64,000 nt of DNA from a bacterium. GTDB taxonomy: Bacteria; Aerophobota; Aerophobia; Aerophobales; AE-B3A. Where the stretch lies: NCBI GenBank assembly GCA_046758525.1, contig JBHIAL010000001.1, positions 667-64,666 of the forward strand, given 5' to 3'. The notes beneath the pieces are model-generated. The model was not told the origin of the DNA. It did not search any database and saw only the letters and a list, made by a program, of their open reading frames with translations. The position numbers and the translations under genes were made by a program. Below, one piece after another: positions 6,483-49,190 of the stretch. Positions within the stretch are counted from its first letter, which is position 1; every line of letters begins with the position of its first letter.

Positions 6483-7682
6483 ATGGTGGCATCATTCATT
6501 CCTTCAATTTTAGATGAGCTTGATGATGTTGTGATAGCAGCGCCTATTGCAGGACATGTGTTAAGATATGACGGCATGGACTGGAAGAACGCTCAACTTG
6601 CCCATAGCGATTTGTCAGGCTTAGCGAATGATGACCATTCCATCTACACCTTACTTGCAGGCAGGGCTGGTGGACAGACCCTTATTGGCGGTATGGCAGC
6701 CAGCGAAAATCTTACGCTTCAGTCCACATCACATGCCACAAGGGGCAAGATACTCTTTGGTACTTCAGCTTATGACGAGGTAAATAATAGATTAGGTCTT
6801 GGTACGGTTTCACCAGCATCACTGCTTACAGTAGCAGGGAATGCCTCTATAGGCTCAGGATATACAGGTATAGCAGCGCCTGCCAATGGAATGTTGATTG
6901 AAGGTAAAGTTTGGATTGGAACCACATCCCCAACAACAAATTCAGGTGATATGCTTGTAGTACATAGAAGTTCTGCCAATAATCAATTGATAACGCTAAG
7001 AAATACACATGTGGATGGTCTCTCTTCTATAAGATTAGAGGATGAGGCTGGGGCGTTTAAAGGGGATATTGGGTATTATAATAACATAGACAAGATACGG
7101 ATAGGGGGGGCTGGAGTTCCCATGTACTTTGACGGGTCATTAGATTTATTTACTTCCGCTATCCCTGCATCGGAAGCAGACTACACAAAATTATATACAC
7201 GAGATTGGAACGGTCCTGGTACAAATGCGCTATTCATACTATGTGAAGAAAATGTTGCTCATGTTTTTGGTAGCAGTGTAGGCATCGGCACGGCTGCACC
7301 AGATTCTCAAGCAAAAGCAACAATAGCAGGCGGACTTAAAACACAAGCTGATGTAGGTGCGACCCAGTTTAATTGGTTTCCCTATGAAGGCGACTGGAGA
7401 ATCTATTTTCGGTCGCCCGTACAAGTTGATGACGAAATGAAATTTGGGACTACTGGTGTATGGGGAGTTGGCAGCAATGTTGGTATTGGGACCCTTACTC
7501 CAGCCGCATCAGCGCAGCTTGAAATGGTATCTACGTCAAAAGGCTTCTTGCCTCCTCGCATGACGGAAGTACAGCGAGATGCAATATCAAGCCCTGCAGC
7601 AGGACTTGTGGTTTATGTTACTGATGGCACAAATCCAAATAAACTCCACTTTTATAATGGCACGGCATGGGGAGTAGTGTAA
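6483..7682 (+). CDS. fiber-like structural protein with repeated xGIGT(x)P motifs
   Basis: 399 aa. N-terminal HSDLSGLANDDHSIY. Three copies of a motif common in phage tail-fiber repeats: LGLGTVSPASL, VGIGTAAPDSQ, VGIGTLTPAAS. Confidence 0.5.
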   Translation: MVASFIPSILDELDDVVIAAPIAGHVLRYDGMDWKNAQLAHSDLSGLANDDHSIYTLLAGRAGGQTLIGGMAASENLTLQSTSHATRGKILFGTSAYDEVNNRLGLGTVSPASLLTVAGNASIGSGYTGIAAPANGMLIEGKVWIGTTSPTTNSGDMLVVHRSSANNQLITLRNTHVDGLSSIRLEDEAGAFKGDIGYYNNIDKIRIGGAGVPMYFDGSLDLFTSAIPASEADYTKLYTRDWNGPGTNALFILCEENVAHVFGSSVGIGTAAPDSQAKATIAGGLKTQADVGATQFNWFPYEGDWRIYFRSPVQVDDEMKFGTTGVWGVGSNVGIGTLTPAASAQLEMVSTSKGFLPPRMTEVQRDAISSPAAGLVVYVTDGTNPNKLHFYNGTAWGVV

Positions 7683-8053
7683 ATCCCGACGGAACGAATG
7701 AGGTAAAGATTATGATTAAAGTAACAAGACATGAAATTACAAAAGACAAAAATAATAATATTATCAGGGGCGTTATAGGAATTACTTACATCGACACAGT
7801 AACTGGCAAATCTGCATATAGAGACAGGGTGTGGACGGTGGGCAGTCCTGATTCAGATTTCCCCACCGTGCCTACAAAGGCAGAGTTTAGGGCTGCTGTC
7901 AAGTCATGGCTAACTGCTATACCTAAAGATGGTCAATCTATTTTACAAAGTATAAAAGCTTCTATACGAAAAGAAGTAGAAGAATCAATTACGGTGTTTA
8001 AACCAGGAGACCCTGGGTCTATGGTGAATGAAGAAATACAGGAGCCGGTATGA
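7667..8053 (+). CDS. hypothetical protein
   Basis: 128 aa, overlapping the preceding gene by 16 nt. Confidence 0.35.
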   Translation: MGSSVNPDGTNEVKIMIKVTRHEITKDKNNNIIRGVIGITYIDTVTGKSAYRDRVWTVGSPDSDFPTVPTKAEFRAAVKSWLTAIPKDGQSILQSIKASIRKEVEESITVFKPGDPGSMVNEEIQEPV

Positions 8054-8109
8054 GCGAGAATAAGATTAAAGTCAAAGCTGAAACTCCCTTGTGAGGCGGA
8101 AAGTTTGAT

Positions 8110-8301
8110 ATGAAATGTCCTGAGTGTGAGCATGTTAAAACTTGTATTGTAAAGGAATATTTATCTCCTTTAGGCGTTGTGGTTTTTAGGATTCGTGAAT
8201 GTCAAAAATGCAAAACAAAATTTGAGACTACCGAGACAGTAGCATTTTATAATGAACGCAATAAAGGGTTTAAAGGGGTACAAATGCGTTTGCTTTATTA
8301 A
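8110..8301 (+). CDS. zinc-finger small protein
   Basis: CPECEH...CQKCK. Confidence 0.35.
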   Translation: MKCPECEHVKTCIVKEYLSPLGVVVFRIRECQKCKTKFETTETVAFYNERNKGFKGVQMRLLY

Positions 8302-8315
8302 TGGCAGGAAATTAA

Positions 8316-8672
8316 ATGGACAACAACAAGATTAAAGTCAAACTGGAACAGATTAAAAACATCGATAAGGATGGAAAGAGCATTAAAGATAAAGAAGGCA
8401 ATTTGATTTACATCAGGCACGATGCGATTGCCCTATCGCAACTGATAAATGCCGTTGACAGCAAGGTAGTCGCTACTGGCGAATATCCTGCATGGATAGC
8501 GCTTGATGATAAAAGTAGAGAGGCGTTAAAGCAAGATAGGGATGAAATTGAATTGACAGTTGACGAGGCATCCTTTTTGAAGAAACTATTTAGTAATCCC
8601 CAAAATGATAGAGTTACTTTGGGGGTATTCCATGTTAGAACGATTAACGGAATTTTGGAGCAACTAAAATAA
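8316..8672 (+). CDS. hypothetical protein
   Basis: 118 aa. Confidence 0.35.
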   Translation: MDNNKIKVKLEQIKNIDKDGKSIKDKEGNLIYIRHDAIALSQLINAVDSKVVATGEYPAWIALDDKSREALKQDRDEIELTVDEASFLKKLFSNPQNDRVTLGVFHVRTINGILEQLK

Positions 8673-9529
8673 TGCCTTATACATTACTCTTGGCGGTTGG
8701 TTTTGGTTCAACAAAAACAGGGCTTGCTACTGTTGGCTATCAGTTGAAGAACGCTGATGCTACTAATAACGGTACAAGAATTACGGCTGGTATAGTGGAA
8801 GTTGGCAATGGCTACTATCAAGCGTCTGTGTCAATCCCTGATACGCATAGCGGTGGCATTCTCTGGGATACTGGAGAGGCAACGCCAAAGTACGTTTATC
8901 AGGACATTAATCCTGGGGTGGACGAATACACTGATGCAAAGATTTCATCAAGGGCGGTAGGTATGGGAACAGGCGTAAATACCGTTACGATAACCTTAAC
9001 AGAGACAGGCGGGACGCCTGTGATACCAGGTGCAACTGTGTCAGTGAAGAATCAGGCTAATGATACTCTACTTGCAACAGGAACAACAGATGCGAACGGG
9101 CAGGTAGTGTTCATGCTTGATAATGGCACATATTCTGTTGACAAGCAGAAGCTTGGCAGTTACAGCTTCACGAATCCTGAAACCCTTGTTGTTAGTGGCA
9201 ACACCAATCAAAGCTACATCGGCACGCCAATAAGCGTGAGCGCACCTGCACAGCCGAACACGTGCAGAATGTTCATCTGGGCAAGGAATCTTGACGGGAC
9301 ACTTATGACAACGCTCACTGGCAATGTTACAATCATCAAATTGCCCTATACCACGTCAGGCGCTGCTTACCAGAAAGATGACACTATATTTATATTACAT
9401 GCAGATGGTTATTTTTATGTGGACGTAGTTTATGGAGCAACCATTAGTATTTATATACCAGTTCTTGGGGTTGATACCACTCTTGTAGTTCCGTCTCAAA
9501 CTACATACGACCTTGATACCTTAATTTAA
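8672..9529 (+). CDS. structural protein with carboxypeptidase-regulatory-like or Ig-like beta-sandwich domain
   Basis: TVTITLTETGGTPVIPGATVSVKNQANDTLLATGTTDANGQVVFMLDNGTYSV is a typical CarboxypepD_reg-like segment. Confidence 0.4.
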   Translation: MPYTLLLAVGFGSTKTGLATVGYQLKNADATNNGTRITAGIVEVGNGYYQASVSIPDTHSGGILWDTGEATPKYVYQDINPGVDEYTDAKISSRAVGMGTGVNTVTITLTETGGTPVIPGATVSVKNQANDTLLATGTTDANGQVVFMLDNGTYSVDKQKLGSYSFTNPETLVVSGNTNQSYIGTPISVSAPAQPNTCRMFIWARNLDGTLMTTLTGNVTIIKLPYTTSGAAYQKDDTIFILHADGYFYVDVVYGATISIYIPVLGVDTTLVVPSQTTYDLDTLI

Positions 9530-9645
9530 GATAATAGAGGTGATGAATACTATTGCAAAATCATATCTTATATCTGAAAAAGAGAATTCTATCTGTACCA
9601 AGATAAAAAACTACCAAGAATTATTGTTTTAGCATAGGAGCGAAT

Positions 9646-10365
9646 TTGTTGTCTAACAGTATAGTTGATGCTAAAACCATTTCAATTATCCTTCCCACCC
9701 GTAAGCGGGTTAGGAATTTAACACGCCTGATAGATTCTATCATTCAAACAAGTAAATATCCTTCTAACATAGAGATTTGTATCCGTGTTGACCATGACGA
9801 TATGGAATCTGCCTTGGCATTAATTCCTTATTCTGACAAAATAACTATAAAAGTTTGTATTGGCTCCAGGGAAAAATGTTATGGCCATTACTGGAATGAC
9901 GCATGGAGATTAGCCACGGGGGATGTCTTACAAATGAGCGGTGATGATTTTATATACAGAACCAAGGATTGGGATGTTGAGATTCTCAAAGAAATAAATA
10001 AGTTCAATGATAAGATGGTTTTTGTCTATGGTAATGATGGATTTCAGCACGGTAATCTGGGAACTCATTTTTTTATCCATCGTAGATGGGCAGATGCGTT
10101 GGGGGAGTTTGTGCAGATGCACACTAACGTATTTTACCACGACACATGGGCGGATGTTTTGGCAACAAGAATAAATAGAAGAATGTACAGAGATGACCTT
10201 TTCTTTGAGCATGTCCATTGGGTAACTGGTAAAACAGGTAAGGATGTAATTTACGAAACCGCTCAAAAGAATGCAGAATCGGACGCCAGAATATGGGAAG
10301 CAAATTGGCAAGGCCCAGCCATGCAGAGTGATGTCGCCAAATTAAAAAGATTACTGAATGAATAA
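9646..10365 (+). CDS. glycosyltransferase family 2-like
   Basis: TTG start with SD AGGAG. N-terminal ISIILPTRKR resembles the GT2 opening strand. Acidic motifs DHDD and GDD follow. Confidence 0.5.
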   Translation: MLSNSIVDAKTISIILPTRKRVRNLTRLIDSIIQTSKYPSNIEICIRVDHDDMESALALIPYSDKITIKVCIGSREKCYGHYWNDAWRLATGDVLQMSGDDFIYRTKDWDVEILKEINKFNDKMVFVYGNDGFQHGNLGTHFFIHRRWADALGEFVQMHTNVFYHDTWADVLATRINRRMYRDDLFFEHVHWVTGKTGKDVIYETAQKNAESDARIWEANWQGPAMQSDVAKLKRLLNE

Positions 10366-10930
10366 TGTTTTGTCATTATTAATATGTTCCTTAACCAAAA
10401 GGGAATCATCCCTCAGAGAACTTTTATCCTGTTTATCTCCCCAATTGGTAGAGGGAGTGCAGATTCTGGTTAATTCGGATAATGGGAGGAAAGCTGTAGG
10501 GCAAAAAAGGAACGAACTATTAAGAGGCGCAACAGGGAAATATGTTACATTCATAGACGATGACGACCTTGTAAGCGATGATTATGTTTTTCTGATTCTG
10601 GATGCAATCAGGAATGATTGTGATGTTGTTGGCATACATCTTCTTATGACAACCAATGGAATCAAGAATAGCGAATGCAGGACATATCATTCACTCAAAT
10701 ATAAATCATGGTGGGATGAGGAAGACCCAGACAGACCAGGAAGGAGGCGGTATTTCAGGAATCCAAATCATCTGAATCCAGTAAAAAGAGACCTTGCCCT
10801 TGCTACACAGTTTATTGAAATAGATTATGGAGAAGACCACGATTATAGCAAAAGGCTTCTGCCTTTATTGAAAACAGAGGTAAATATAAACGAACCAATC
10901 TATTACTATCAGGTTAAGGGCGTGGAGTAA
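10358..10930 (+). CDS. glycosyltransferase family 2-like
   Basis: YVTFIDDDDLVSDDY is a DXD-type motif. There is an 8-nt overlap with the upstream gene. Confidence 0.5.
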   Translation: MNNVLSLLICSLTKRESSLRELLSCLSPQLVEGVQILVNSDNGRKAVGQKRNELLRGATGKYVTFIDDDDLVSDDYVFLILDAIRNDCDVVGIHLLMTTNGIKNSECRTYHSLKYKSWWDEEDPDRPGRRRYFRNPNHLNPVKRDLALATQFIEIDYGEDHDYSKRLLPLLKTEVNINEPIYYYQVKGVE

Positions 10931-10940
10931 AGGAGTATTT

Positions 10941-11630
10941 GTGGAAGTAATGATTAACCAATCGGCAGGGCTTGGTGATATTTTCTTCTGCCAGAAAATT
11001 GCTATGAAACTTATGGAACTTGGTTATGAAGTTTATTGGCCTGTTATTGAAGAATATAGATATATAAGTAATTATATACATAATGGTGTTATATGGAGAA
11101 TGAGCGAAAAAAAACGTAATGAAATTTATAAATTAGACCTTAGCCATTCTACCAATTATTTTAGGTTCAAGCACAATCAACAGCTTAATGATAATATCAT
11201 GCAAGCTAAATACAAGTATGCAAACAGTCAATTCTCATTTGCAATTGGTGGGTGGGAAGATTGGCAGGATTATCTTAAAATAACAAGAAATTCCGAAGAG
11301 GAGAAAGAACTCGAAGATATTATCCTGAACGGCGTCCCCGACAAGTTTGCGCTTGTGTGCAACCATTTTGCAACTAACTATCTCACTCTCAATAAGAGTA
11401 TAGAATCTGACTTACCAACAGTGGAGATTATCAAGATTCCTAATGTGCCTATTTTTAGTTGGTGCGGAATTATTGAGAAGGCCTCCGAAATAAGAATACC
11501 AGATTCAAGTTTTCCATATCTTGTTGAGGTACTGAATACAACAGATAACCTCTATCTTTATAATAGAAACTACGAATCTAATATACGAACCAAGCCTATA
11601 TGGAAGAAGGGATGGACATTCGTGGAATGA
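10941..11630 (+). CDS. hypothetical protein, possible GT-B/GT9-like transferase
   Basis: AGLGDIFF resembles the GLGD signature of heptosyltransferase-like enzymes. The evidence is weak. Confidence 0.3.
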   Translation: MEVMINQSAGLGDIFFCQKIAMKLMELGYEVYWPVIEEYRYISNYIHNGVIWRMSEKKRNEIYKLDLSHSTNYFRFKHNQQLNDNIMQAKYKYANSQFSFAIGGWEDWQDYLKITRNSEEEKELEDIILNGVPDKFALVCNHFATNYLTLNKSIESDLPTVEIIKIPNVPIFSWCGIIEKASEIRIPDSSFPYLVEVLNTTDNLYLYNRNYESNIRTKPIWKKGWTFVE

Positions 11631-12568
11631 CATTTCTTATCACAGGAATATCTGGCTTTGTTGGTCCCTATTTAGCGAGTCATCTATTAGAGAGGGGACA
11701 TATCGTGTATGGGTTGGCTCACACTAAAACAGACAAGTGTGCGAAAGGTGTGAAATATCTACATGGGGATTTACGTAATATAAATGATTTAGTATCTTTA
11801 CAATCATACAATTTTGCTGGTGTTTTTCATCTTGCAGCATTAACTCACCCACCAACATCATTCAAGGAACCCAGATTGTATTTTGAAACAAATGCACTTG
11901 GGACTGTGAATTTATGCGAAGTCCTTGGAGAAAATAGTATAATTATGCAGTGCAGTAGTCCAGAAGTCTATGGGGTGTGCCCACAAAGAGAAATATTTGA
12001 GTCATTCCCAATGAACCCTGTTTCTCCCTATGCTGTTTCAAAGGCAGCATCTGATTTATATATTCTTGAGCGGACAAAAAGTAAAAGATTAAAGGCATTC
12101 ATTACACGGGCTGGGTCGCATACTGGAGCAGGCAGGCCTTCTTGTTATTCTATTTCTTCAGATGCTGCCCAAATAATAAGAATTAAAAGAGGCTTGCAGA
12201 AGCCTGTACTCAGGGTAGGAAATATTAATTCCCAGAGGGCTGTGATGGATGTTCGAGATGTGGTTGCAGCTTATTATAAATTAATGATTAAATATATACT
12301 GGGGGGAATAAGGAATGGAGATATTTTTCATATAAGTGGGCATAATTTACAGACAATAGAGTATTATATTGACCTTATGATGAATTTGGCAAATGTTAAA
12401 GCGGAAAAGGTAGCTGATAAAAATCTCGTGCGAAGGATAGATATTCCTGTACAGATATTAAACAGTGATAAAACTCGCTCTATTATTTCGTGGAAGCCAA
12501 AAATTCCTATTGAGGAAACTCTTGGAGAGCTACTTGATTATTGGGAGAAGATTATAGATGGGAATTAA
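11627..12568 (+). CDS. GDP-mannose 4,6-dehydratase / GDP-4-keto-6-deoxymannose reductase family (Gmd/Rmd-like extended SDR)
   Basis: Rossmann motif TGISGFVG. Catalytic YAVSK (YxxxK). LRVGNINSQRAVMDVRDVV matches the Gmd-family LRxGNLxAxRDWGxAxDYV block. Translationally coupled to the upstream gene by an ATGA overlap. Confidence 0.65.
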   Translation: MTFLITGISGFVGPYLASHLLERGHIVYGLAHTKTDKCAKGVKYLHGDLRNINDLVSLQSYNFAGVFHLAALTHPPTSFKEPRLYFETNALGTVNLCEVLGENSIIMQCSSPEVYGVCPQREIFESFPMNPVSPYAVSKAASDLYILERTKSKRLKAFITRAGSHTGAGRPSCYSISSDAAQIIRIKRGLQKPVLRVGNINSQRAVMDVRDVVAAYYKLMIKYILGGIRNGDIFHISGHNLQTIEYYIDLMMNLANVKAEKVADKNLVRRIDIPVQILNSDKTRSIISWKPKIPIEETLGELLDYWEKIIDGN

Positions 12569-13610
12569 AGATATTGACTCACATAAGCTGAATTACCATC
12601 CTGAAAGAGTAGCCCAATGGAAGAGTACGGGTTTTTGTTATCCCCTTCATATGGAAGTTGGAATAACTAATGAGTGCAATCACAGGTGTAAACAATGCAC
12701 GCTGGATTGGATAAATCATGGGCAGGATTCTCTTGATGCCCAGATTCTTGTTGAGACATTAAAGGAAGCAAGCAGTCTTGGAGTTAAATCTGTTTACTTT
12801 GCGGGGGAGGGTGAGCCAACTCTTCACAGAGCTTTGGGTTTGTTTGCAAGAACAGCGCATGATTTGGGAATAAAAGTGGCGCTTTCAACCAATGGGTCTT
12901 GTTTATCTACCTTAAAGGATACATTACCCTACTTATCGTGGTTAAGGTTTAGTGTTGATGCCGCAACCGCAGAAACATTCTCAAAAATCCATCGAGTAGA
13001 ACTTTCTGAATTTGATAAGGTTATTTCCAATATAAAGCAATGCGTAGATGTGGTTAAAAATGAGGATTATAAAGTACAGATTGGTATTCAGTCCCTCCTA
13101 ATGCCAGAAAATATAAATGAGATTGAGCCACTTGCCAACATTGCCAAGAATATAGGGGCGCATAATTTCCAAGTGAAACCTGCTCATTGCCACCCTAAAA
13201 GCTCTTATCAGATAACACCCCGCCAGCATTTACAAGATGGGATGCAACAAAGGCTTGAGAAGTTAAACAGTAATACTTTTACAACAATAGTAAGGATTAG
13301 AAGCTTGGAAAGGTTAGGTCAACCCAGAACTTATAATGAATGTCATGCGTTTAACTTCTATTGTCTCATTGATGCTTGTGGAAATTTGTCCCCTTGTAAT
13401 GTTTTTTATGGAAAAGATAATTATATATTTGGTAATATTTATAAGGACAGTCTTCAAGAGATTTGGTCAAGCGACAAGAAGAGAATAATAATAAAGCAAA
13501 TAGCTGAGCTTAAACATTCACTGTGTAAAGATTACAGATGCAGACAGGATGTAATGAATAGGTATCTTGAAAGAGTGAAGAATCCAGAGATTAACGATGA
13601 GTTTATTTAG
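12558..13610 (+). CDS. radical SAM enzyme with C-terminal SPASM/twitch-like Cys cluster
   Basis: CNHRCKQC is a Cx3Cx2C motif. GEGEP is a SAM-binding-like motif. The C-terminal CHAFNFYCLIDACGNLSPC supplies auxiliary-cluster cysteines. Confidence 0.7.
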   Translation: MGIKDIDSHKLNYHPERVAQWKSTGFCYPLHMEVGITNECNHRCKQCTLDWINHGQDSLDAQILVETLKEASSLGVKSVYFAGEGEPTLHRALGLFARTAHDLGIKVALSTNGSCLSTLKDTLPYLSWLRFSVDAATAETFSKIHRVELSEFDKVISNIKQCVDVVKNEDYKVQIGIQSLLMPENINEIEPLANIAKNIGAHNFQVKPAHCHPKSSYQITPRQHLQDGMQQRLEKLNSNTFTTIVRIRSLERLGQPRTYNECHAFNFYCLIDACGNLSPCNVFYGKDNYIFGNIYKDSLQEIWSSDKKRIIIKQIAELKHSLCKDYRCRQDVMNRYLERVKNPEINDEFI

Positions 13611-13621
13611 GAGTAGAATGA

Positions 13622-14590
13622 ATGATTAAAAAGACGGTCTTGGTATGTGGAGCGGGGGGTTTTATAGGCAATCATCTTGTAAAGCGCCTGAAAAAAGACG
13701 GTTATTGGGTAAGGGGAGTGGATTTGAAATACCCAGAATATTCAAAAACTGAAGCGGATAATTTTGTTGTTGGTGATTTAACAGATATTACTTTTTGTCG
13801 AGGGATAATGGATAGACAATTTGATGAGGTATATAACCTCGCTGCTGATATGGGGGGAGCTGAGTATGTATTTACAGGCGATAACGATGCTAATATTATG
13901 TCCAATTCAGTAATGATTAATCTAAACATACTGAATACTTGTTATAAGAGAAACATAAAGCGCCTTTTTTATTCCTCTTCAGCGTGCTGCTATGCAGAAC
14001 ACAACCAGTTAGACCCACATAATCCAAAATGTTCTGAAGATTCTGCCTATCCTGCTAATCCTGACTCTGCCTATGGTTGGGAAAAACTGTTTAGTGAGCG
14101 TCTTTATAATGCCCATCATAGAAATTGTGGTATGGAAGTTAGGATTGGTCGCTATCATAATGTGTTTGGTCCCGAATGTACTTGGTTTGGAGGGAAGGAA
14201 AAAGCACCTGCTGCACTATGTAGGAAAGTGGCTGAAGTTGAATCTGGAGGAGGAATAGAGATATTTGGGGATGGGAAACAAACAAGGTCTTTTCTCTACA
14301 TTGATGAGTGCATTGAAGGTACTATCAGGCTTATGAAGTCGGATTATAATGAACCCATTAACATAGGCTCGGATGAAATGATAACAATAGACGAATTAGC
14401 CAAAAAGATAATGACTATTGCCAAGAAGGAATTAAAAATCAGGCATATAGATGGGCCTCAAGGGGTTAGGGGCAGAAACTCAGATAATACACTGATTAAA
14501 AAGGTCTTAGGCTGGGCTCCATCTGCTTCTTTGGATGAGGGGCTTAGAGTAACATATGACTGGATTTCAAAAAGGAGGGATATAACATGA
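13622..14590 (+). CDS. GDP-mannose 3,5-epimerase homologue (GME family)
   Basis: Block-by-block resemblance to plant GDP-mannose 3',5'-epimerase as I recall it, not an alignment I ran: GAGGFIGNHL; NLAADMGG; SSACCYAE; DSAYGWEKL; RIGRYHNVFGP; GGKEKAPAALCRK; GDGKQTRSF.YIDECIEG; NIGSDEMITI; GPQGVRGRNSDNTLIKKVLGWAP; EGLRVTYDWI. Confidence 0.75.
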   Translation: MIKKTVLVCGAGGFIGNHLVKRLKKDGYWVRGVDLKYPEYSKTEADNFVVGDLTDITFCRGIMDRQFDEVYNLAADMGGAEYVFTGDNDANIMSNSVMINLNILNTCYKRNIKRLFYSSSACCYAEHNQLDPHNPKCSEDSAYPANPDSAYGWEKLFSERLYNAHHRNCGMEVRIGRYHNVFGPECTWFGGKEKAPAALCRKVAEVESGGGIEIFGDGKQTRSFLYIDECIEGTIRLMKSDYNEPINIGSDEMITIDELAKKIMTIAKKELKIRHIDGPQGVRGRNSDNTLIKKVLGWAPSASLDEGLRVTYDWISKRRDIT

Positions 14591-16725
14591 CAGTCGAACA
14601 TACTATTATAATACCTCTGACCACTAACCTTTGTAACTTGAGAGAAACCATAAAGAGTGTAAATGAATACTCAGAAGACCACGAGATTCTGGTTATTGTA
14701 GATGATAGACAAAAGGTAGAATCAGAAATTGTAAAAACTATGGCATCTGTAGTTTGCAAAAAATCTACAATTGGGGAGGCTCTTAATGCTTGCATAGATT
14801 CAGCCAATGGAAAATACATTACAATCTTGAAGGATAATGCACTTGTTTCTCCTAATTGGCTAAATAAACTAAAAAGAACCTTTTTGCTCCCATCTTACAG
14901 ACCAGTTACAATAGCTGCGCCAATTCTGAGTCATACAGTATTTAGTGTCCAACAATGTGAATTCAGTCTGACATCTGGTAATTATATAAAAGCCTTGGAA
15001 GAGCGTAAGTTTAATTATGGATACACTCTTGCAAATCTGGTTTCGGATGTGTGTATTATGTTTGAGAGGACAAATGGGGTGCGCTTTAATGGGACGCTAA
15101 ATTCAGGTGAGATATTTGACGTGGTAGTAAGGAACACGCTCTCTGGAAATATATGTGCAATTAATAAGGGCGTTTTCATATTTGATAAGAGTCCAATAAC
15201 AAAACTTGATAATCTATCAAAGAGTATTATTGCTGTAGCCAAGATACATAACAGGTATCTCACAAGACCCCAAACAATACTGGGGGTAATAAGAACCAAA
15301 ATAACAAATGATTTTGACGCTGAAATATTCAAAATGGTATTGGATAAAACTAAGAGTCTTGTTGATAAAATACTTGTTCTCAATGAGGGACAGGAGTATC
15401 CTTTTGACCTGATAGGAGATATAAATAAACTGGATGTGTCTGAATCAATACATAACGAGAAAGCTTCCGAAGCAATAATCGACAGAATTGAAGAACTTAA
15501 TTGCGACTGGATTTTACACCTGAATGAAAAAGAAGTTTTAGAGGAGTCTATTACAAGGAAGGATTTGGACAGACTTATTTATAACCCTAACCCCCTTATT
15601 CATGGATATGTTTTTCAGGATTATCTATTTGAGGGGACGGACAATAACTACACAGCAAGTCAAGATTCCACCAAGACTGTAGTCCCCAATCTATTCAGAT
15701 ATATTCCAAATAGTAAGCATAGAAATTTTGCTATGCTCTTAAAGATGACTGAAGACTCTTTATGTGTATCAAGCATGAGATATAAACAGTATATAGAGCC
15801 AGCTAAAAATAAACCTGTCTTTACAACGAAGATGTGGAATGCAAATAATAGAATTGACATATGTACTATTATGAAAAATGAGGAGGCCAAATTATTCTGG
15901 TACATGCACAGACATTTTGGCTTTGCCAACAATGTTATACTTATTGACACAGGTTCTACGGACAGCTCCATAGAGTTGGCGAGATTGTTAGGAGCTATTG
16001 TTTATGAAGAAAGGGACGGCTCTAAAGATTTTGCACGAGCAAGGAATACCTATCTCAATAAATCATCTTCAGAATGGATTTTTCATGTTGATTTGGATGA
16101 ATATTGCAGTGATTTGACAGGCATAAGGAAATTGACTGAAGGTACTTGTGATAACTGGTTATTCAAGATTCAAAACAGGCGGAAGGATGGCTCCACTCCT
16201 ACAAGCGAAACCATCAGGCTGTTTCGTAATAAAGAAGGATTATCTTATAAGGGTATAATACATGAAATACTTGATACGCCGAAACCCCCTGCATATTCGC
16301 CCATAATTCTAATCAATGAAGGATTCTTGGAAGATGATGATGTCGTTGCAAGGAAGGTAAAAATGTATCTGGATATGTGCATGATGAGAATCAAACAAGA
16401 CCCAGAGGATGTTCAGGCATTATACTCAGTTGGGATTCATTTGGCAGATGATAATAGATATGAGCTTGCAATAGCAATGCTCAACAAGGCGGTAAGATTG
16501 ATGAGTGAATGGCACTTGCCAAAGAAGGAACTGGCAGTTACATATCTGCATTTTGGTAAACAATTATATAAAGAGCTTGTTGATATGTTGCCTGCCCACC
16601 ATCCTGACAGACTGGAATATGTAAAAGTATTTGAGTTTCTAAACAACGCATTCAAACCAAGAATAATAGATGTTGTCAGTATTACAAAAGATATATCTGA
16701 CGAGGATATAATGAAGATTTTATAA
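14587..16725 (+). CDS. multidomain glycosyltransferase: N-terminal GT-like domain, central GT2 domain, C-terminal TPR-like repeats
   Basis: 712 aa. ICTIMKNEE...LIDTGSTD...DLDEY is a GT2 signature. The C-terminus is helical and repeat-like (ALYSVGIHLADDNRYELAIAMLNKAV). ATGA overlap with the epimerase gene. Confidence 0.55.
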   Translation: MTVEHTIIIPLTTNLCNLRETIKSVNEYSEDHEILVIVDDRQKVESEIVKTMASVVCKKSTIGEALNACIDSANGKYITILKDNALVSPNWLNKLKRTFLLPSYRPVTIAAPILSHTVFSVQQCEFSLTSGNYIKALEERKFNYGYTLANLVSDVCIMFERTNGVRFNGTLNSGEIFDVVVRNTLSGNICAINKGVFIFDKSPITKLDNLSKSIIAVAKIHNRYLTRPQTILGVIRTKITNDFDAEIFKMVLDKTKSLVDKILVLNEGQEYPFDLIGDINKLDVSESIHNEKASEAIIDRIEELNCDWILHLNEKEVLEESITRKDLDRLIYNPNPLIHGYVFQDYLFEGTDNNYTASQDSTKTVVPNLFRYIPNSKHRNFAMLLKMTEDSLCVSSMRYKQYIEPAKNKPVFTTKMWNANNRIDICTIMKNEEAKLFWYMHRHFGFANNVILIDTGSTDSSIELARLLGAIVYEERDGSKDFARARNTYLNKSSSEWIFHVDLDEYCSDLTGIRKLTEGTCDNWLFKIQNRRKDGSTPTSETIRLFRNKEGLSYKGIIHEILDTPKPPAYSPIILINEGFLEDDDVVARKVKMYLDMCMMRIKQDPEDVQALYSVGIHLADDNRYELAIAMLNKAVRLMSEWHLPKKELAVTYLHFGKQLYKELVDMLPAHHPDRLEYVKVFEFLNNAFKPRIIDVVSITKDISDEDIMKIL

Positions 16726-17003
16726 ACAATCGGAGAAATTGCTTGACATTTTAATTATTTGTGTTTTTATTATGTGTAAGTGAGTATGCTAACGCAGTTT
16801 ACAATTGAAAAGATTAAAAGGGTTGTACAAGAGGAGGAGTCAAGAATCACTAACAACGATTTCTGTGGTTCTATAAGTATTAAACTGAATTTTCTTCATG
16901 GTTTGGTAAGGACGGTCGAAACATCCATAAACCAACATGAGCAACTCAAGAACTAAAATTTAAAATATATTAAAAATCTCATTAGCTTTACCAAAGCCTG
17001 AGA

Positions 17004-17046
17004 TGGGTAATTAATCTACCTGTCTTGGGCTTTTTTATTGGAATAA
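17004..17046 (+). terminator. possible rho-independent terminator (G·U-containing stem plus T tract)
   Basis: AGCCUGAGAUGGG pairs with CCUGUCUUGGGCU as RNA in a 13-bp stem with 4 wobble pairs, followed by UUUUUAUU. This is weak and lies immediately before the portal ATG. Confidence 0.25.
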
Positions 17047-17047
17047 A

Positions 17048-18358
17048 ATGCAAATAACACAAAAAATAAGAAACTTTCTTAGAACAAAAGCCAATAGAGC
17101 ATTGGGGCTTATGATTTATCCTTGGATGGACAATAGCGGGATAAAGATGGATTGGCGAACAAAGGATTATATAGATTTGTATGGTAAATCCGATTTTTCC
17201 AATGCTGTGGTTCATGGGACAGTGAAAGAGCTTGCATTGGCTATTGCCAATTGCGATTTGAAATTTTATCGAAAGGTAAGAAAGAAAAAATTAAAGAAAT
17301 TGACCCGTACTCACCCCCTTGTAGATTTATTCTGGAATGTTAATCCTGTTACAACCAGATTTGATTTTTGGGAATCTCTTGTTGTCTATTTGCAATTGGC
17401 AGGCGAAGCCCCTGTAGCATTAGAGCGACTGAATAAGTTAGACCAACCTAAAGAACTATGGACTTTAAGACCCGATTTTATTCGTGTAATTCCAGACGCT
17501 AAAAATTTTGTTAGGGGGTATCTGTATGAGACTGGTGTGGGACGGGTTGGCTACCTCCCCAACGAATTAATATTTTTTAAGCATTTTAGCCCAACAGAAA
17601 CATGGAGAGGGCAGTCCCCCTATGCTGCTGCAAGACAAGAACTTATATCTGAATATTATAGAAGTAAATATAATATCGAATTCTTCAAACAAGGCGCAAG
17701 TCCTTCTGGAGTATTCTCCACAGATAGGACATTAGACAATGATACGTTTAAGAGACTTCAGAAAGAGCTTGAGATGGCTTACTCAGGCGTTAATAAGGCG
17801 CACAGACCAATGTTACTTGAAAGCGGATTGCAATGGACTCGAATAGGAGTGAGCCCAAAGGATGGTGATTTTATACAACAACACGCCTTGAACAATGAAG
17901 CAATTGCAGGTGTTGTGAATGTGCCCCCTCAATTTGCCTTTGGGGGCAATTCATTCAGATACGGAAATGTTCAAACCACAAAGGAACAAGCCAAGATGTT
18001 TTGGGGGATTACGATAAAGCCCCTAATCAGAAAAATAGAGGAGTATTTAAATACTTTCCTTGTAAAGAGATATGGTAATGATTTGATTGCCAAGTTTGAT
18101 TTAAGTGAAATTGACGCTATCAACGATACAAATGTTGAAAAGAGTATTGTTGCAAGAAGAATGGTAGAAATAGGTATCTGGACTCCAAATGAAGCAAGAA
18201 AGATATTGTGGAATATGGAAGAAACAGAAGACGGAAATGGCGATACAAGATATGTACCAGGTAATTTAATTGATGCCAATTCGGAATCGCAGATACCTGA
18301 TGAACCTGATAATGGTAAACTTTTGGAGAGGCACGAAAATGAACGAATTTATATATAA
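17048..18358 (+). CDS. portal protein
   Basis: 436 aa. Called mainly by synteny (portal, protease, then MCP) and size. Confidence 0.55.
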   Translation: MQITQKIRNFLRTKANRALGLMIYPWMDNSGIKMDWRTKDYIDLYGKSDFSNAVVHGTVKELALAIANCDLKFYRKVRKKKLKKLTRTHPLVDLFWNVNPVTTRFDFWESLVVYLQLAGEAPVALERLNKLDQPKELWTLRPDFIRVIPDAKNFVRGYLYETGVGRVGYLPNELIFFKHFSPTETWRGQSPYAAARQELISEYYRSKYNIEFFKQGASPSGVFSTDRTLDNDTFKRLQKELEMAYSGVNKAHRPMLLESGLQWTRIGVSPKDGDFIQQHALNNEAIAGVVNVPPQFAFGGNSFRYGNVQTTKEQAKMFWGITIKPLIRKIEEYLNTFLVKRYGNDLIAKFDLSEIDAINDTNVEKSIVARRMVEIGIWTPNEARKILWNMEETEDGNGDTRYVPGNLIDANSESQIPDEPDNGKLLERHENERIYI

Positions 18359-19513: not shown

Positions 19514-20779
19514 ATGACTGAACCAAAAGAGCCACAGGAAAAAGACTTAGCTACACAACTCGAAGAAAAGGTTTCAGAGTTGGAGGCCAAAAAGAAAGAA
19601 GAAGTTGAAAGGAAAATTAAGGAGAAGGAGGATGCTGTAAAAATAGCTGAAGGCATGAAGGAATTCAAGGGCTTAAATGATAAGCTAACCAAAGAACTTG
19701 AGGCATTGAAGGAGCAGCAAGGTAATATAAAGGAAAGTGTTGAAAGGGATAGGGAAGAAAGAAAGCTTCGTTTCGACACTACTAAAGAGGTCAATGAGAG
19801 TGCCCCAAATAGTAACAAAGGGAGCGAGTTTAGTTTTGCTCGATTTTATAACGCTATAGCACATAAGAACATGAATCTTGCTCCTTACGAGTTTAAGGCT
19901 TTGGGGGAAAGCACAGGTTCGGGGGGTGGTTTTATAGTACCAGAGGAATACCTTGGCGATTTAAGGGATAGAATTACAGCGCAGTCAGTTGTTAGAGGAA
20001 TGGGACCTACTGTCTATCCTATGGTATCTGATACTCTGTTAGTACCAAAGATAACAGGCGGGGCTACAGCCGTTTGGGTGGGGGAGAATGCACAAATTAC
20101 TGAAAGCCAAAACACATTTGGACAACTTCAGTTAATAGCAAAGTTGTTGGCAGCCCTTGTCAAAGTAAGTAATCAATTGATTTCTGATTCTAATCCTGCT
20201 GTTGAGACTGCTGTTAGAAAGGATACGGTAAAGGTTCTTGCGCTTGCCGAGGATATTGCATTCTTGGGAGGCTCTGGTTCGGCTAACCAACCAACAGGTA
20301 TCATAAATACTACTGGTGTAGCAGAGGTTACTCTTGGGGCAAATGGGGCAACGCCTACATTTGATAATATTTATGACACACTCTATCAGGTGGAGTTGGC
20401 TAATGGCGTAGCAAGCGGTTGGGTTATGCACCCAAGAACAAAAAACACATTGACAAAGATTAAGGATTCCAATGGTCAATACATCTACAATGTAAGTCCA
20501 AGTATCAAGGAGCCAGATACACTTGTAGGTTTGCCTGTAAAACTAACCACCCAAGTTCCAATCAATCTTACTGTGGGCAGTTCTTCAGACTGTTCTTATG
20601 TAATCTGCGCCCAATGGGATGAGGCTGTGATTGGGGAAAGAGCAGGCATTGAGTTTGCTGCTGATACATCTGGGACTGCTTTTGAGTTTTACCAGACTTG
20701 GATTAGGGCAATTGAAAGAATTGATTTTGGGTTAAGGACACCAGAAGTGTTCTGTAAAATGACTGGCGTAAGACCTTAA
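19514..20779 (+). CDS. major capsid protein, HK97 fold, with N-terminal delta/scaffold domain
   Basis: The N-terminal ~110 aa are a charged coiled coil (EEKVSELEAKKKEEVERKIKEKEDAVK). The rest has HK97-MCP size and composition. It follows the protease and is followed by a strong terminator. Confidence 0.7.
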   Translation: MTEPKEPQEKDLATQLEEKVSELEAKKKEEVERKIKEKEDAVKIAEGMKEFKGLNDKLTKELEALKEQQGNIKESVERDREERKLRFDTTKEVNESAPNSNKGSEFSFARFYNAIAHKNMNLAPYEFKALGESTGSGGGFIVPEEYLGDLRDRITAQSVVRGMGPTVYPMVSDTLLVPKITGGATAVWVGENAQITESQNTFGQLQLIAKLLAALVKVSNQLISDSNPAVETAVRKDTVKVLALAEDIAFLGGSGSANQPTGIINTTGVAEVTLGANGATPTFDNIYDTLYQVELANGVASGWVMHPRTKNTLTKIKDSNGQYIYNVSPSIKEPDTLVGLPVKLTTQVPINLTVGSSSDCSYVICAQWDEAVIGERAGIEFAADTSGTAFEFYQTWIRAIERIDFGLRTPEVFCKMTGVRP

Positions 20780-22807: not shown

Positions 22808-23812
22808 ATGCCACTACAAGCAACAGGTTCAGAAGCCCTAATTGTGTTTGATGAAGAAGTAACATACAATACTATACCAACGGCAGCAGCAGCAAATCCA
22901 AGATTATTTCCCTTTACATCCGAGGATTTGAGGAGGTCAAGGGGCAGGATTGAGTCAGCAGCCATTACGGCATACAGGGATAGAAGGATGCCCCGACAGG
23001 AAAATATCGATGTCAGGGGCACAATTAATTTTGAGGCAGATGCTACGTGGATGGGAACCATATTCAAACATGCTTTAGGTTCTGTATCATCTACAACAAC
23101 CGCTCCTAATTACACTCACACAATTACAGTTGGCGCTCTGCCTACAGGTTTGATGCTTGAGAAAAGATTTATAAATGTTGGTTCAGCGACTGGAACTCAA
23201 TATTTCAACTACAGAGGATGCAAGATTAATCAGCTCTCCATGAGTTTTAGTGCAAGCGGATTTATAACAGGCTCGGTTTCTGTTATAGGCGCATCGGAAA
23301 ATCAATCCACAGCCTCCTACACAACAGCGACTGCAACAGACTTGGGTAATAATCCATTCGATGGTTTCGAGGCTACAATATTTGAGGGGGGAACTGGAGG
23401 TACTACATTAGGTTACGCTACTGATATAGAGTTTACACTTGATAATGCCCTTGATGACACCACATTCGCCATTGGTGGAGCGGGGACAAGGCGAAATCTC
23501 CCAGAAGGCTTCTCAACTATAACAGGTACAATGACTGTGTTATTTGAGGATATTTCACTTTATACAAAGGCTGTAAATTTTGATACAAGCCTCATCAAGA
23601 TACAACTCACTCGTGGTACAGGAGACGGCTCGGCAGGCAATGAACACATGGAAATTCTTATACCAGAATTGAAATATGATTCGAGCGCTCCTGTTGTAGC
23701 GGATGATAGGGGAATCAAGCTTGAGTTGCCTTTCTCTGCATTTGCATCAACAGCAGGCGGTTCTACAACCAGTATGCAGATTACACTCAAGAATACTCAA
23801 GCGACAATCTGA
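22808..23812 (+). CDS. structural protein, possibly major tail tube protein
   Basis: 334 aa, Thr/Gly/Ala-rich and beta-rich in composition. Called from position only. Confidence 0.35.
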   Translation: MPLQATGSEALIVFDEEVTYNTIPTAAAANPRLFPFTSEDLRRSRGRIESAAITAYRDRRMPRQENIDVRGTINFEADATWMGTIFKHALGSVSSTTTAPNYTHTITVGALPTGLMLEKRFINVGSATGTQYFNYRGCKINQLSMSFSASGFITGSVSVIGASENQSTASYTTATATDLGNNPFDGFEATIFEGGTGGTTLGYATDIEFTLDNALDDTTFAIGGAGTRRNLPEGFSTITGTMTVLFEDISLYTKAVNFDTSLIKIQLTRGTGDGSAGNEHMEILIPELKYDSSAPVVADDRGIKLELPFSAFASTAGGSTTSMQITLKNTQATI

Positions 23813-25392: not shown

Positions 25393-25658
25393 TCGGTGGC
25401 AAGCGGATAACCCAGATTGCGAAGACTCCATCAGGAAGATTGGTTAATGAGGATATACCAATCCCTTTCTACATAGAAGATATAGTTTTTGAGGCTTTTC
25501 TTTGCTACAAAATGGGTAAATTATTCAGAGATGGCGGGCTAAAAGCACAAAGATACAAGGAGTTACAAGTGCTATATTTGGTAATCCAATACATAGACAG
25601 AAAGTACATCAATGATTGGTGTGAAGTTCTTTTTGGTTCAAAGGACAGTAAAAAATAA
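25368..25658 (+). CDS. -1 frame extension giving the G-T-like chaperone fusion (about 263 aa total with 24868..25368)
   Basis: See the slippery site above. The track ORF 25440..25658 is the ATG/TTG-anchored part of this frame. Confidence 0.5.
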   Translation: MEHAIEKLIGGKRITQIAKTPSGRLVNEDIPIPFYIEDIVFEAFLCYKMGKLFRDGGLKAQRYKELQVLYLVIQYIDRKYINDWCEVLFGSKDSKK

Positions 25659-49112: not shown

Positions 49113-49190
49113 TGGTCAGGGAGGGAGGATTTGAACCTCCGACCTCCTGCTTCCAAGGCAGGCACGCTAACCAGACTGCGCTACTCCCTG
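49113..49190 (-). tRNA. tRNA-Pro (anticodon TGG) with encoded CCA
   Basis: Reverse complement reads CAGGGAG-TA-GCGC-AGTCTGGTTA-GCGT-G-CCTGC-CTTGGAA-GCAGG-AGGTC-GGAGG-TTCAAAT-CCTCC-CTCCCTG-A-CCA. This is a full cloverleaf with a 7-bp acceptor stem, a T-loop TTCAAAT and a UGG anticodon. Confidence 0.8.

Follow-up and report, generated by a model that had tools for sequence, protein, structure and literature searches.

Does a phage gene that resembles the plant enzyme GDP-mannose 3,5-epimerase (GM35E, or GME) really encode that enzyme, and if so, what would a phage do with it? The gene lies in a 64,000-nt stretch of DNA (the window), and a first-pass annotation had described it as a clear GME homologue in a phage. 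The phage setting is borne out by the genes around it, which encode TerL, portal, S78 protease, capsid, tail (tail tube and tape measure), and replication proteins (PolA and a primase-helicase) (Table 1). A megablast search with 21 kb around the gene found no match among 50,697 phage records; thus, the window phage has no close sequenced relative.

Table 1. Features of the window. Coordinates are window positions; GT, glycosyltransferase; SDR, the extended SDR of the cassette; AtGME, Arabidopsis thaliana GME.
Feature	Coordinates	Strand	Basis or remark
TerL	1483-3021
GT2a, soluble family-2 GT, 239 aa	9646..10365	+	First cassette gene; Pfam Glycos_transf_2, 4.4e-06, above gathering score
GT2b, short soluble family-2 GT, 190 aa	10358..10930	+	Pfam Glycos_transf_2, 2.1e-07
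X, compact GT-B-fold protein like GT9 heptosyltransferases, 229 aa	10941..11630	+	Formerly "hypothetical"
Extended SDR, GDP-sugar 4,6-dehydratase/4-reductase group (Gmd/Rmd/GDP-heptose-dehydratase-like)	11600..12568	+	Pfam GDP_Man_Dehyd, 2.6e-45
Radical SAM/SPASM enzyme, 350 aa, unnamed family	12558..13610	+	Closest fold, DesII
GDP-mannose 3,5-epimerase (GM35E/GME) homologue, 322 aa	13622..14590	+	ATG-to-TGA ORF; AtGME match, conserved residues
712-aa protein, two GT2 domains plus C-terminal helical/TPR-like region	14587..16725	+	Pfam Glycos_transf_2, two stretches, 4.2e-16
Terminator-like hairpin (predicted), 17-pair stem then TTTTATT	16993..17033	+	Between cassette and portal gene
Portal	17048-18358
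HK97-type capsid	19514-20779
Tape measure	25658-29566
Large DNA methylase	44297-46441		N6/N4 type (PF01555)

The GME ORF is preceded, a few bases 5' of its start, by a Shine-Dalgarno-like GGAG. All eight GME motifs quoted in the first-pass annotation were found in it, in the order claimed: NLAADMGG (residues 72-79), SSACCYAE (119-126), DSAYGWEKL (148-156), RIGRYHNVFGP (174-184), GGKEKAPAALCRK (190-202), GDGKQTRSFLYIDECIEG (216-233), NIGSDEM (247-253), and GPQGVRGRNSDNTLIKKVLGWAP (278-300). In a phmmer search of all PDB sequences, AtGME (2c59) was matched with an E value of 1.5e-96 (327 bits; residues 6-318 against 32-341), which puts the similarity well beyond chance level. A second GME structure, 8sg0, followed at 2e-93, and the next family, UDP-glucuronate decarboxylase, at 6.5e-29. 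Identity to AtGME is 49.4% over 308 aligned residues, the same distance as that of the biochemically proven bacterial enzyme MfGM35E, which is 50.5% identical to AtGME (PMC6678494).

We then compared the residues that define GM35E (taken from PMC8787198), with the AtGME numbering offset confirmed via the entry for the K178R mutant, 2c54. The Pfam Epimerase domain spans residues 6-249 (4.6e-44), as in extended SDRs, and GAGGFIG at residues 10-16 is a GxxGxxG NAD+ motif of the type found in MfGM35E; its glycines G10, G13, and G16 are kept in all the viral and bacterial homologues aligned. The triad [ST]...Yx3K is present as S120, Y151, and K155 (S143, Y174, and K178 in AtGME), and the Cys acid/Lys base pair as C122 and K194 (C145 and K217). 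R285, R222, and N180 correspond to R306, R243, and N203 of AtGME; in the plant enzyme R306 acidifies the catalytic Cys (the equivalent in GMER is Lys), R243 binds the diphosphate, and N203 is conserved (PMC8787198). The 11 GM35E-defining positions do not vary among the viral, metagenomic, and plant homologues compared (43 of 43). The phage protein keeps all GME-specific residues, and its E value to AtGME (1.5e-96) is far removed from that of the next SDR family (about 1e-29). The description of the gene as a clear GME homologue stands, and judged from its sequence it very probably encodes a genuine GDP-mannose 3,5-epimerase, an enzyme producing rare L-sugars.

Databases mostly say otherwise. 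The source record calls the protein an "NAD-dependent epimerase/dehydratase family protein," and most of its cyanophage homologues are labeled UDP-glucose 4-epimerase. If these labels were right, the gene would encode a generic UDP-glucose 4-epimerase or some undefined member of the broader family, which we consider most improbable. The labels arise because NCBIfam has no GME model; its best match to the ORF is Fcl, at 105 bits. Against the Fcl/GMER equivalog, NF047922, the score is 105.1 bits versus a cutoff of 500, and the base and its helper are Lys194 and Arg285, where GMER has His and Lys, so an Fcl/GMER identity was rejected. The GalE identity was rejected likewise: the ORF scores 88.9 bits against equivalog TIGR01179 (cutoff, 262.3), and it has the Cys/Lys acid-base pair, which GalE lacks. 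That pair sets GM35E apart from both GalE (which has neither residue) and GMER (Cys/His), and misannotation of GME of this kind is explicitly cautioned against in a review (PMC8787198). Against a solved GME the ORF scores 327 bits, three times as much as for other families (105 or fewer for UXS, GalE, Fcl, and others). Thus, a generic UDP-sugar epimerase without GME-specific residues, which the first-pass annotation had named as its own refutation, is not what was found, and the GME label amounts to an annotation fix for a protein whose phage relatives are mostly labeled generically or as UDP-glucose 4-epimerases.

The same annotation had held that GME homologues are uncommon in prokaryotes, and this did not hold up. 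At least 8,000 clusters at the 90% identity level match the phage GME with E values of 1e-20 or less, and the best 120 of these are all 68 to 74% identical to it; named sources among the best matches include Thermodesulfitimonas, Nitrospirota, Kryptobacter, Brocadia, and Thermodesulfatator. A full scan of 1.84 billion representatives gave 984 clusters at 50% identity with E values of 1e-30 or less. Phages are no exception: 36 isolated cyanophage or marine-virus records match at 1e-90 or less, and ORF123 of cyanophage S-SCSM1 has been published as a GDP-mannose-3,5-epimerase (PMC9602691). GME in a phage is therefore already known, and the novelty of the gene was overstated. Taken alone, it was correctly spotted but belongs, as an ordinary representative, to a large enzyme family. 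Less usual is its setting, a conserved sugar cassette carried by viruses.

That cassette is a translationally coupled set of soluble enzymes with GME as a fixed member. The successive intergenic spacings are -8, +10, -31, -11, +11, and -4 nt, the first and last being overlaps of GT2b with GT2a and of the 712-aa GT with the GME stop codon, and none of the proteins has a membrane segment (for GT2a, the maximum Kyte-Doolittle mean over 19 residues is 1.00). A six-gene core (GT2a, GT2b, X, SDR, radical SAM, GME) is colinear in five other loci (L004, L005, L043, L047, and L048) at 48 to 75% identity, except that GT2a is only 32 to 33% identical in L043 and L048; it is 68 to 75% identical in the other three, always at the same position, and GT2b is 59 to 71% identical in all five. 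To this core the window adds the 712-aa GT. Its orthologue in L047 (57% identity) likewise lies directly 5' of the portal gene, and it is missing from the L004/L005 and L043/L048 versions.

The core occurs on three phage backbones and lies among head or packaging genes on two of them. The first, of the HK97/S78 siphovirus type (the window and L047), has the cassette between TerL and portal; the second has a DUF6260-type capsid (L004/L005), and in L005 the cassette lies between the major capsid and neck genes; the third consists of contigs of 164 to 204 kb. In our reading, the cassette moves between phage backbones. Its GC content, 37.3% versus 38.7% for the rest, gives no sign of recent acquisition. 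In a neighbor-joining tree without bootstrap, which is an indication only, the window GME clusters with GMEs of the other cassettes in a clade separate from those of the cyanophages.

Scans for transcription signals added little. A promoter scan of the region gave 35 sites versus 33.4 expected and was uninformative, and terminator-like sites were not above chance (5 found versus 5.1 expected). The hairpin between the cassette and the portal gene is notable by its unusual stem length and its position alone; it would act as a terminator.

The neighbors of GME suggest a second sugar. The first-pass annotation had paired GME with an adjacent Gmd/Rmd-like enzyme. An SDR is indeed nearby but does not directly adjoin GME; a radical SAM/SPASM gene lies between the two. 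The GDP-L-fucose-like product suggested for the pair is a guess. "Gmd/Rmd-like" is apt in the broad sense only: the best PDB match of the SDR is GDP-D-glycero-D-manno-heptose 4,6-dehydratase (7us5; 3.6e-43), followed by an Rmd-type GDP-6-deoxy-D-lyxo-4-hexulose reductase (2pk3; 2.3e-39) and a GDP-6-deoxy-D-mannose reductase (6x3b; 1e-33), and its S-x-E and YxxxK align with 7us5 residues. It fails as a Gmd proper, scoring 64.5 bits against equivalog TIGR01472 (cutoff, 415), and its sequence is compatible with both a dehydratase and a reductase. (The SDR may start at 11612; an independent gene call gives 318 aa.)

The radical SAM enzyme had only weak sequence matches in the PDB, to the SPASM enzyme BtrN, and matches of at most 26% identity among isolated phage records. 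A scan of one genome per species yielded a single relative (30% identity) and pointed to no cellular origin for the cassette. Of eight loci examined, seven have a member of this family directly 3' of an SDR of this kind.

Combining these results, we put at roughly 0.7 the probability that the gene is a GME and that it supplies a sugar donor within the cassette. The donor, as far as the sequence indicates, is most likely GDP-L-galactose or GDP-L-gulose for glycan assembly. For substrate, products, and above all acceptor, we infer the following course. If it works as its Arabidopsis and Methylacidiphilum counterparts do, GME would bind GDP-D-mannose, which must come from the host because no GDP-mannose-making enzyme is encoded in the cassette. 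Tyr151, Lys155, and Ser120, with bound NAD+, would oxidize C4; the Cys122/Lys194 pair would then deprotonate and reprotonate C5 and C3 to invert them, Arg285 lowering the pKa of the Cys; and GME would finally re-reduce C4. GDP-L-galactose would result, accompanied by the side products GDP-L-gulose (and GDP-D-altrose), and the cassette would thereby have an L-hexose donor. A second GDP-sugar, deoxy- or keto-modified, would probably come from the SDR and radical SAM pair, and the five glycosyltransferase domains would build a short glycan, with a protein, probably a virion protein, as its most likely acceptor.

The fold and chemistry could be those of GME and the substrate still be another GDP-sugar: a GDP-6-deoxy- or keto-hexose from the SDR and radical SAM pair, or GDP-D-glycero-D-manno-heptose. 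The enzyme might also release mainly the C5 epimer; in either case, the product would not be L-galactose. The heptose link comes from the best solved relative of the SDR, from the heptosyltransferase-like fold of X, and from radical SAM homologues (43 to 45% identity) that lie beside HldE-like and GmhA-like heptose-activation genes; moreover, GME is fixed in the cassette rather than free-standing, and several epimers are already known as products of GM35E enzymes. However, the AtGME residues that contact the substrate are all unchanged in the phage enzyme, which is 70 to 74% identical to ordinary free-standing bacterial homologues. Heptose-activation genes are absent from the window, and in the three loci that have them (L044 to L046) no GME-level homologue was detected, just generic SDR matches at 24 to 25% identity. 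We think a different substrate unlikely and retain GDP-mannose.

On the acceptor, our preference for a virion protein is tentative, at odds below even, and follows from the position of the cassette and the protein-glycosyltransferase affinities of the 712-aa GT. The sole PDB sequence matches of that protein are GmaR (5.2e-14), the SunS-like 7msk (9e-09), and SunS (7msp; 3.9e-06). We take GmaR to be a flagellin O-GlcNAc transferase and SunS and the SunS-like enzyme to be peptide S-glycosyltransferases. The NCBIfam SunS-family peptide S-glycosyltransferase model matches residues 426-640 at 5.5e-10, under its cutoff. The 712-aa GT is thus a candidate protein glycosyltransferase, its C-terminal part being similar to enzymes that glycosylate proteins and peptides. 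The solubility of the cassette proteins also favors a protein acceptor, as does the presence among the structural neighbors of X of TibC, presumably a protein heptosyltransferase. On the other side, the GmaR and SunS similarity is weak (25 to 28% identity, under the NCBIfam cutoff), and the 712-aa GT is absent from four of the five other cassettes. Because the hairpin lies between the cassette and the portal-capsid genes, the head genes need not be coexpressed with the cassette. In PHROG and Pfam scans, the genes from TerL to the cassette gave a faint tail-fiber match, a PTL_trimer domain, and little else, so no acceptor can be nominated with confidence. Candidates would include the capsid, the tail tube (22808-23812), a 285-aa Ig-like protein (8672-9529), and a 399-aa fiber-like protein (6483-7682).

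Virion glycosylation has precedents. Mycobacteriophages glycosylate capsid and tail-tube subunits with phage-encoded enzymes, according to Freeman et al. 2023 as relayed in PMC12619734, and chloroviruses, as described in part in PMC9614988, use their own soluble glycosyltransferases and GDP-sugar-modifying enzymes for capsid glycans. In the literature searched we found no description of GME together with a radical SAM enzyme in virion glycosylation.

The cassette might instead serve during infection as an auxiliary metabolic module, altering glycans of the host surface (LPS, capsule, or S-layer) and perhaps blocking superinfection; the L-galactose made via GME would in that case enter a host polysaccharide, and the virion would be undecorated. 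We regard this as possible, though doubtful. Cyanophage authors have read GME-containing islands as serving host cell-surface modification, the characterized bacterial GM35E has a proposed role in LPS synthesis, and one bacterial O-antigen-like cluster, which has Wzm/Wzt, contains a relative of the radical SAM enzyme. Extension of undecaprenyl-linked glycans is a common task of soluble GT2 enzymes, which may also act on lipid-linked intermediates. However, the cassette encodes no membrane protein and lacks an initiating phosphoglycosyl transferase, a flippase, a polymerase, and a ligase; it lies among head or packaging genes on two unrelated backbones; and the 712-aa GT is similar to enzymes that glycosylate proteins and peptides. 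The phage also looks virulent (it carries replication genes of its own, and the ORFs scanned included no integrase), which makes lysogenic serotype conversion unlikely; with no membrane proteins in the cassette either, conversion of the Gtr type was rejected.

A third potential acceptor is the phage DNA. The glycosyltransferases might modify hypermodified bases with GME supplying the donor, as in 5-hydroxymethylcytosine epimerase-GT pairs. Phage GT and epimerase pairs that glycosylate 5hmC have been demonstrated, some of them near terminase genes, and DNA-glycosylation clusters are recognized by a GT (with or without an epimerase) beside a C5-methyltransferase (C5-MT), a 5mYOX/TET dioxygenase, or a thymidylate-synthase-like hydroxymethylase (10.1101/2023.12.21.572611). 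The window phage does invest in DNA modification, with its large methylase. This methylase is, however, of the N6/N4 type rather than a C5-MT; the cassette lies about 28 kb from it, beside head and packaging genes; and five GT domains with a TPR-like tail exceed what base glycosylation typically uses. The ORFs scanned (small ones only in part) included no C5-MT, 5mYOX/TET, or hydroxymethylase, and the locus was rejected as such a cluster. A DNA acceptor is very unlikely.

Returning to the virion, we can imagine, with the odds clearly against the full statement, a mobile, virus-specific cassette that decorates virion proteins with L-galactose or L-gulose and with a second rare GDP-derived sugar made by the SDR and the new radical SAM enzyme, both installed by the GT9-like X and the GmaR/SunS-like GT. 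If true, phages would have their first virion glycosylation system of the L-galactose type, and GDP-sugar pathways their first radical SAM step. Virion glycosylation by the cassette would extend the phage-encoded process beyond mycobacteriophages and bring L-hexoses into phage glycans, with relevance to immune recognition, receptor masking, and particle stability. New enzymes for the synthesis of rare L- and deoxy-sugars would also come from it, namely, a GM35E of phage origin, a radical SAM enzyme of DesII-like fold with GDP-sugars as its probable substrates, and a minimal GT-B transferase of 229 aa. The recurrence of the cassette on unrelated phage backbones, on two of them beside head or packaging genes, may matter more than GME alone.

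How does this locus compare with known systems? The phage GME shares with AtGME and MfGM35E the triad, the Cys/Lys pair, the Arg helper, the diphosphate-binding Arg, and the Asn; its glycine motif is as in MfGM35E, and it is in the length class of the bacterial enzyme, whereas the plant GME has N- and C-terminal extensions (377 versus 322 aa). The known enzymes belong to the vitamin C pathway or to a chromosomal LPS cluster; here a siphovirus-like phage encodes the predicted enzyme in a glycosyltransferase/radical SAM cassette. For the SDR and radical SAM pair, the comparison is desosamine biosynthesis, in which DesII, a radical SAM TDP-4-amino-4,6-dideoxy-D-glucose deaminase, has a 4,6-dehydratase partner. 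As in the virion glycosylation of mycobacteriophages and chloroviruses, the virus carries its own (here, predicted) soluble glycosyltransferases, although the mycobacteriophage enzymes have no sequence relation to those of the cassette as far as tested. The GMEs of marine T4-like cyanophages (for example, those of S-SCSM1 [ORF123], P-TIM68, and S-SSM7) are also phage-borne, 56 to 61% identical to the window GME, with all functional residues kept, and located in glycosyltransferase-rich islands. No match to the radical SAM enzyme or to X was detectable in the cyanophage GME islands compared. These islands lie in large myovirus genomes, where GME is found beside Gmd, Fcl, fucosyltransferases, and 2OG oxygenases; in contrast, the window GME is part of a compact cassette adjoining head and packaging genes.

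The 322-amino-acid (aa) window protein that the first-pass annotation had called a GDP-mannose 3,5-epimerase (GME, or GM35E) belongs, as firmly as sequence permits one to say, to that family. All eight sequence blocks quoted in that annotation are present in the open reading frame (ORF) in the same order, and comparison with all PDB sequences bore out the identification. The Arabidopsis GDP-mannose 3',5'-epimerase (AtGME) matched at E = 1.5e-96 (327 bits; query residues 6 to 318, chain residues 32 to 341) and a second solved GME, 8sg0, at 2e-93, whereas the best non-GME family, UDP-glucuronate decarboxylase, reached only 6.5e-29. According to Beerens et al. (PMC8787198), the features that mark GM35E against UDP-glucose 4-epimerase (GalE) and GDP-L-fucose synthase (GMER, or Fcl) are the S/Y/K triad S143, Y174, and K178; C145 as acid paired with K217 as base, a pair that is Cys/His in GMER and of which GalE has neither residue; R306, which acidifies the Cys and is a Lys in GMER; the diphosphate-binding R243; and the conserved N203. 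When the HMMER alignment was converted to UniProt numbering (offset 2, verified with entry 2c54, the K178R mutant, which has R in place of K), all of these were found to be kept, as S120, Y151, K155, C122, K194, R285, R222, and N180; GAGGFIG lies at residues 10 to 16. An alignment of 43 homologues, made up of AtGME, the window protein, and 24 viral and 17 metagenomic or bacterial sequences, showed no variation at any of the 11 positions examined except for the known plant GxxGxxA variant. The window protein is 49.4% identical to AtGME; because the only biochemically characterized bacterial enzyme, from Methylacidiphilum fumariolicum, is 50.5% identical to AtGME (PMC6678494), the phage protein is about as far from the reference as an enzyme of demonstrated activity.

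Pfam gave only the generic SDR families Epimerase and GDP_Man_Dehyd. NCBIfam lacks a GME model; the best match there was GDP-L-fucose synthase, at 105 bits versus a cut-off of 500, and its GalE model gave 89 bits versus a cut-off of 262. Consequently, P0001, the database entry identical to the window protein and encoded on the 76.9-kb contig 'MAG ... [bacterium]', is named 'NAD-dependent epimerase/dehydratase family protein'.

The rarity and novelty that had been claimed for the gene did not hold. In a word-indexed search, at least 8,000 clusters matched at E ≤ 1e-20. The best 120 of these at least 8,000 are all 68 to 74% identical, and their named sources are Thermodesulfitimonas, Nitrospirota, Kryptobacter, Thermodesulfovibrio, Desulfofervidus, Brocadia, and Thermodesulfatator; among the matches listed, several carry the JGI annotation GDP-D-mannose 3',5'-epimerase. 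Exhaustive phmmer comparison with 1.84 billion representatives at 50% identity gave 984 clusters at E ≤ 1e-30, a cut-off set above the scores of other SDR families. Many of the 984 are fused into proteins of 500 to 850 aa (e.g., representatives P0274 to P0282), with the GME domain N-terminal or C-terminal. Among isolated phages, 36 records matched at E ≤ 1e-90 (55 to 61% identity), all of them marine Synechococcus or Prochlorococcus myoviruses or marine single-cell viral records, and homologues were found on 36 more contigs in IMG/VR. The phage homologues are mostly labeled UDP-glucose 4-epimerase or 'nucleotide-sugar epimerase', but for S-SCSM1 both the annotation and a published discussion call the gene product GDP-mannose-3,5-epimerase (PMC9602691). 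A predicted GME gene in a phage is thus already known.

The part worth pursuing is the conserved cassette around the gene, with its GT9-like mini-transferase and a radical SAM family found in association with NDP-sugar genes. Its seven genes overlap or are at most 11 nt apart (spacings −8, +10, −31, −11, +11, and −4), their GC content (37.3%) resembles that of the remainder of the genome, and none of the seven proteins has a plausible membrane segment. Two short GT2 glycosyltransferases (GT2a and GT2b) are followed by X, labeled 'hypothetical', which has the fold of a GT-B, GT9-like glycosyltransferase but is very compact, about two-thirds as large as WaaC or WaaF. The X family has 33 members, from metagenomes only, and its invariant residues include G10, G12, D13, K19, W33, K90, Y91, R116, and E121. 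The best solved relative of the extended SDR is GDP-D-glycero-D-manno-heptose 4,6-dehydratase (3.6e-43), with Rmd-type GDP-4-keto-6-deoxymannose reductases at 2.3e-39 and 1e-33; its S-x-E and YxxxK residues are present, and it does not pass the Gmd equivalog model. The radical SAM gene and GME follow, and then a 712-aa glycosyltransferase (GT) that combines two GT2 domains with a helical tail. Among solved proteins, it has sequence similarity only to the flagellin O-GlcNAc transferase GmaR (5.2e-14), a SunS-like enzyme (9e-09), and SunS (3.9e-06); its SunS-family NCBIfam match is below threshold.

Coordinates of the cassette, of surrounding features of the window, and of extra genes in two related loci
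Feature	Position	Strand	Remarks
TerL	1483-3021
Fiber-like and Ig-like genes	6483-9529	+	between TerL and portal
Cassette	9646-16725	+	between TerL region and portal
X	10941-11630	+	229 aa
GME ORF	13622-14590	+	322 aa; ATG to TGA; GGAG just upstream
Hairpin	16993-17033	+	17-bp stem, then TTTTATT; between cassette and portal gene
Portal	17048-18358
S78 protease			head gene set
HK97-type capsid	19514-20779
Head-tail adaptor, tube			structural gene set
Tape measure			1,302 aa; structural gene set
N6/N4 DNA methylase (PF01555)	44297-46441	+	714 aa
tRNA-Pro (TGG)	49113-49190	−	single; between RNR gene and small ORF upstream of primase gene
RNR, primase, SbcCD-like nuclease, UvsX-like recombinase, PolA, DnaB-primase			replication genes; strand opposite structural genes
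L047 insert	12287-13576		B12-binding radical SAM and three further genes without family assignment
L005 extra cassette genes	9053-9682, 11062-11736

The cassette is conserved and mobile between phage backbones. The order from GT2a to GME is colinear in the related loci L004, L005, L043, L047, and L048, at 48 to 75% identity (tblastn with the window proteins); the source contigs of L043 and L048 are 204 and 164 kb. L047 is syntenic with the window phage (TerL, 57%; portal, 64%; capsid, 59%; 714-aa GT, 57%), and its cassette is in the same place, with extra genes between radical SAM and GME. L004 and L005 are of a different head lineage (DUF2213 protease and DUF6260/phrog_771 capsid); on its annotated flanks, the L005 cassette has the major capsid gene to one side and neck and tail genes to the other, and its X and SDR are fused. 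A CmcI-like O-methyltransferase gene is inserted in the cassettes of both L004 and L005, and in L005 GME is followed by a sulfotransferase-like gene as well. This variable center suggests that the same core yields differently decorated sugars. The window GME clusters with the other cassette GMEs in a neighbor-joining tree without bootstrap support, and this group includes clusters found on 18 to 29 contigs, Tara Oceans samples among them. More distant loci (radical SAM protein, 43 to 45% identity) retain the SDR and radical SAM genes but nothing else of the cassette, next to aminotransferase, formyltransferase, and heptose-activation genes; one such pair shares a bacterial O-antigen-like gene cluster with Wzm/Wzt. 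The B12-binding radical SAM protein of L047 is probably a methyltransferase.

The window phage is siphovirus-like and appears virulent, and no integrase was found among the window ORFs scanned. The sign of the coding strand and the GC skew flip near 47 kb (window position about 47000), separating the structural and late block (+) from the replication block (−). The methylase is interrupted by an insertion of ∼316 aa with a LAGLIDADG domain, which starts at Cys258 (SEAHFA/CVTPDTEIL) and ends at FITGN/TFPERL, its C-terminal junction being GN, not HN. With it taken out, the methylase would regain its canonical AHFATFP motif, and the insertion thus resembles an intein that carries a homing endonuclease. 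The fiber-like and Ig-like genes are in an unusual location. The product of one (399 aa) contains a PTL_trimer domain and has a faint tail-fiber match; the other, directly upstream of the cassette, encodes a 285-aa Thr/Ser/Gly-rich protein with a CarboxypepD_reg-like Ig domain. The two proteins might be head fibers or decoration proteins and possible glycosylation targets.

By homology, GME would oxidize host GDP-D-mannose at C4, epimerize it at C5 and C3, and re-reduce it; the product would be GDP-L-galactose and the side product GDP-L-gulose. Together, the SDR and the radical SAM enzyme probably provide a second, modified GDP-sugar; conceivably, 4,6-dehydration or reduction would be followed by radical oxidation or dehydration of the DesII kind. 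Five GT domains would then build a short glycan.

The acceptor is the weakest step. The cassette could glycosylate DNA, but the hallmark partners of that process, a C5-MT, TET, or hydroxymethylase (10.1101/2023.12.21.572611), are absent from the window ORFs scanned, and the window methylase is of the N6/N4 type and far from the cassette; DNA glycosylation is therefore unlikely. We tentatively favor a protein, most plausibly a virion component, because all of the cassette enzymes are soluble, because head or packaging genes surround the cassette on two unrelated backbones, because the 712-aa GT has its affinities with glycosyltransferases that act on proteins and peptides, and because mycobacteriophages offer a precedent, their capsid and tail-tube subunits being glycosylated by phage-encoded systems (Freeman et al. 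2023, according to the account in PMC12619734). Against a virion acceptor, only one of the three backbones has the 712-aa GT, and the hairpin stands between the cassette and the head operon, which suggests that the TerL-to-cassette and portal-capsid blocks are separate transcription units. Host-surface modification is the role that the cyanophage authors assign to their own GME islands (PMC9602691); in S-SCSM1, the GME gene follows Gmd and Fcl and precedes a run of fucosyl- and other glycosyltransferases.
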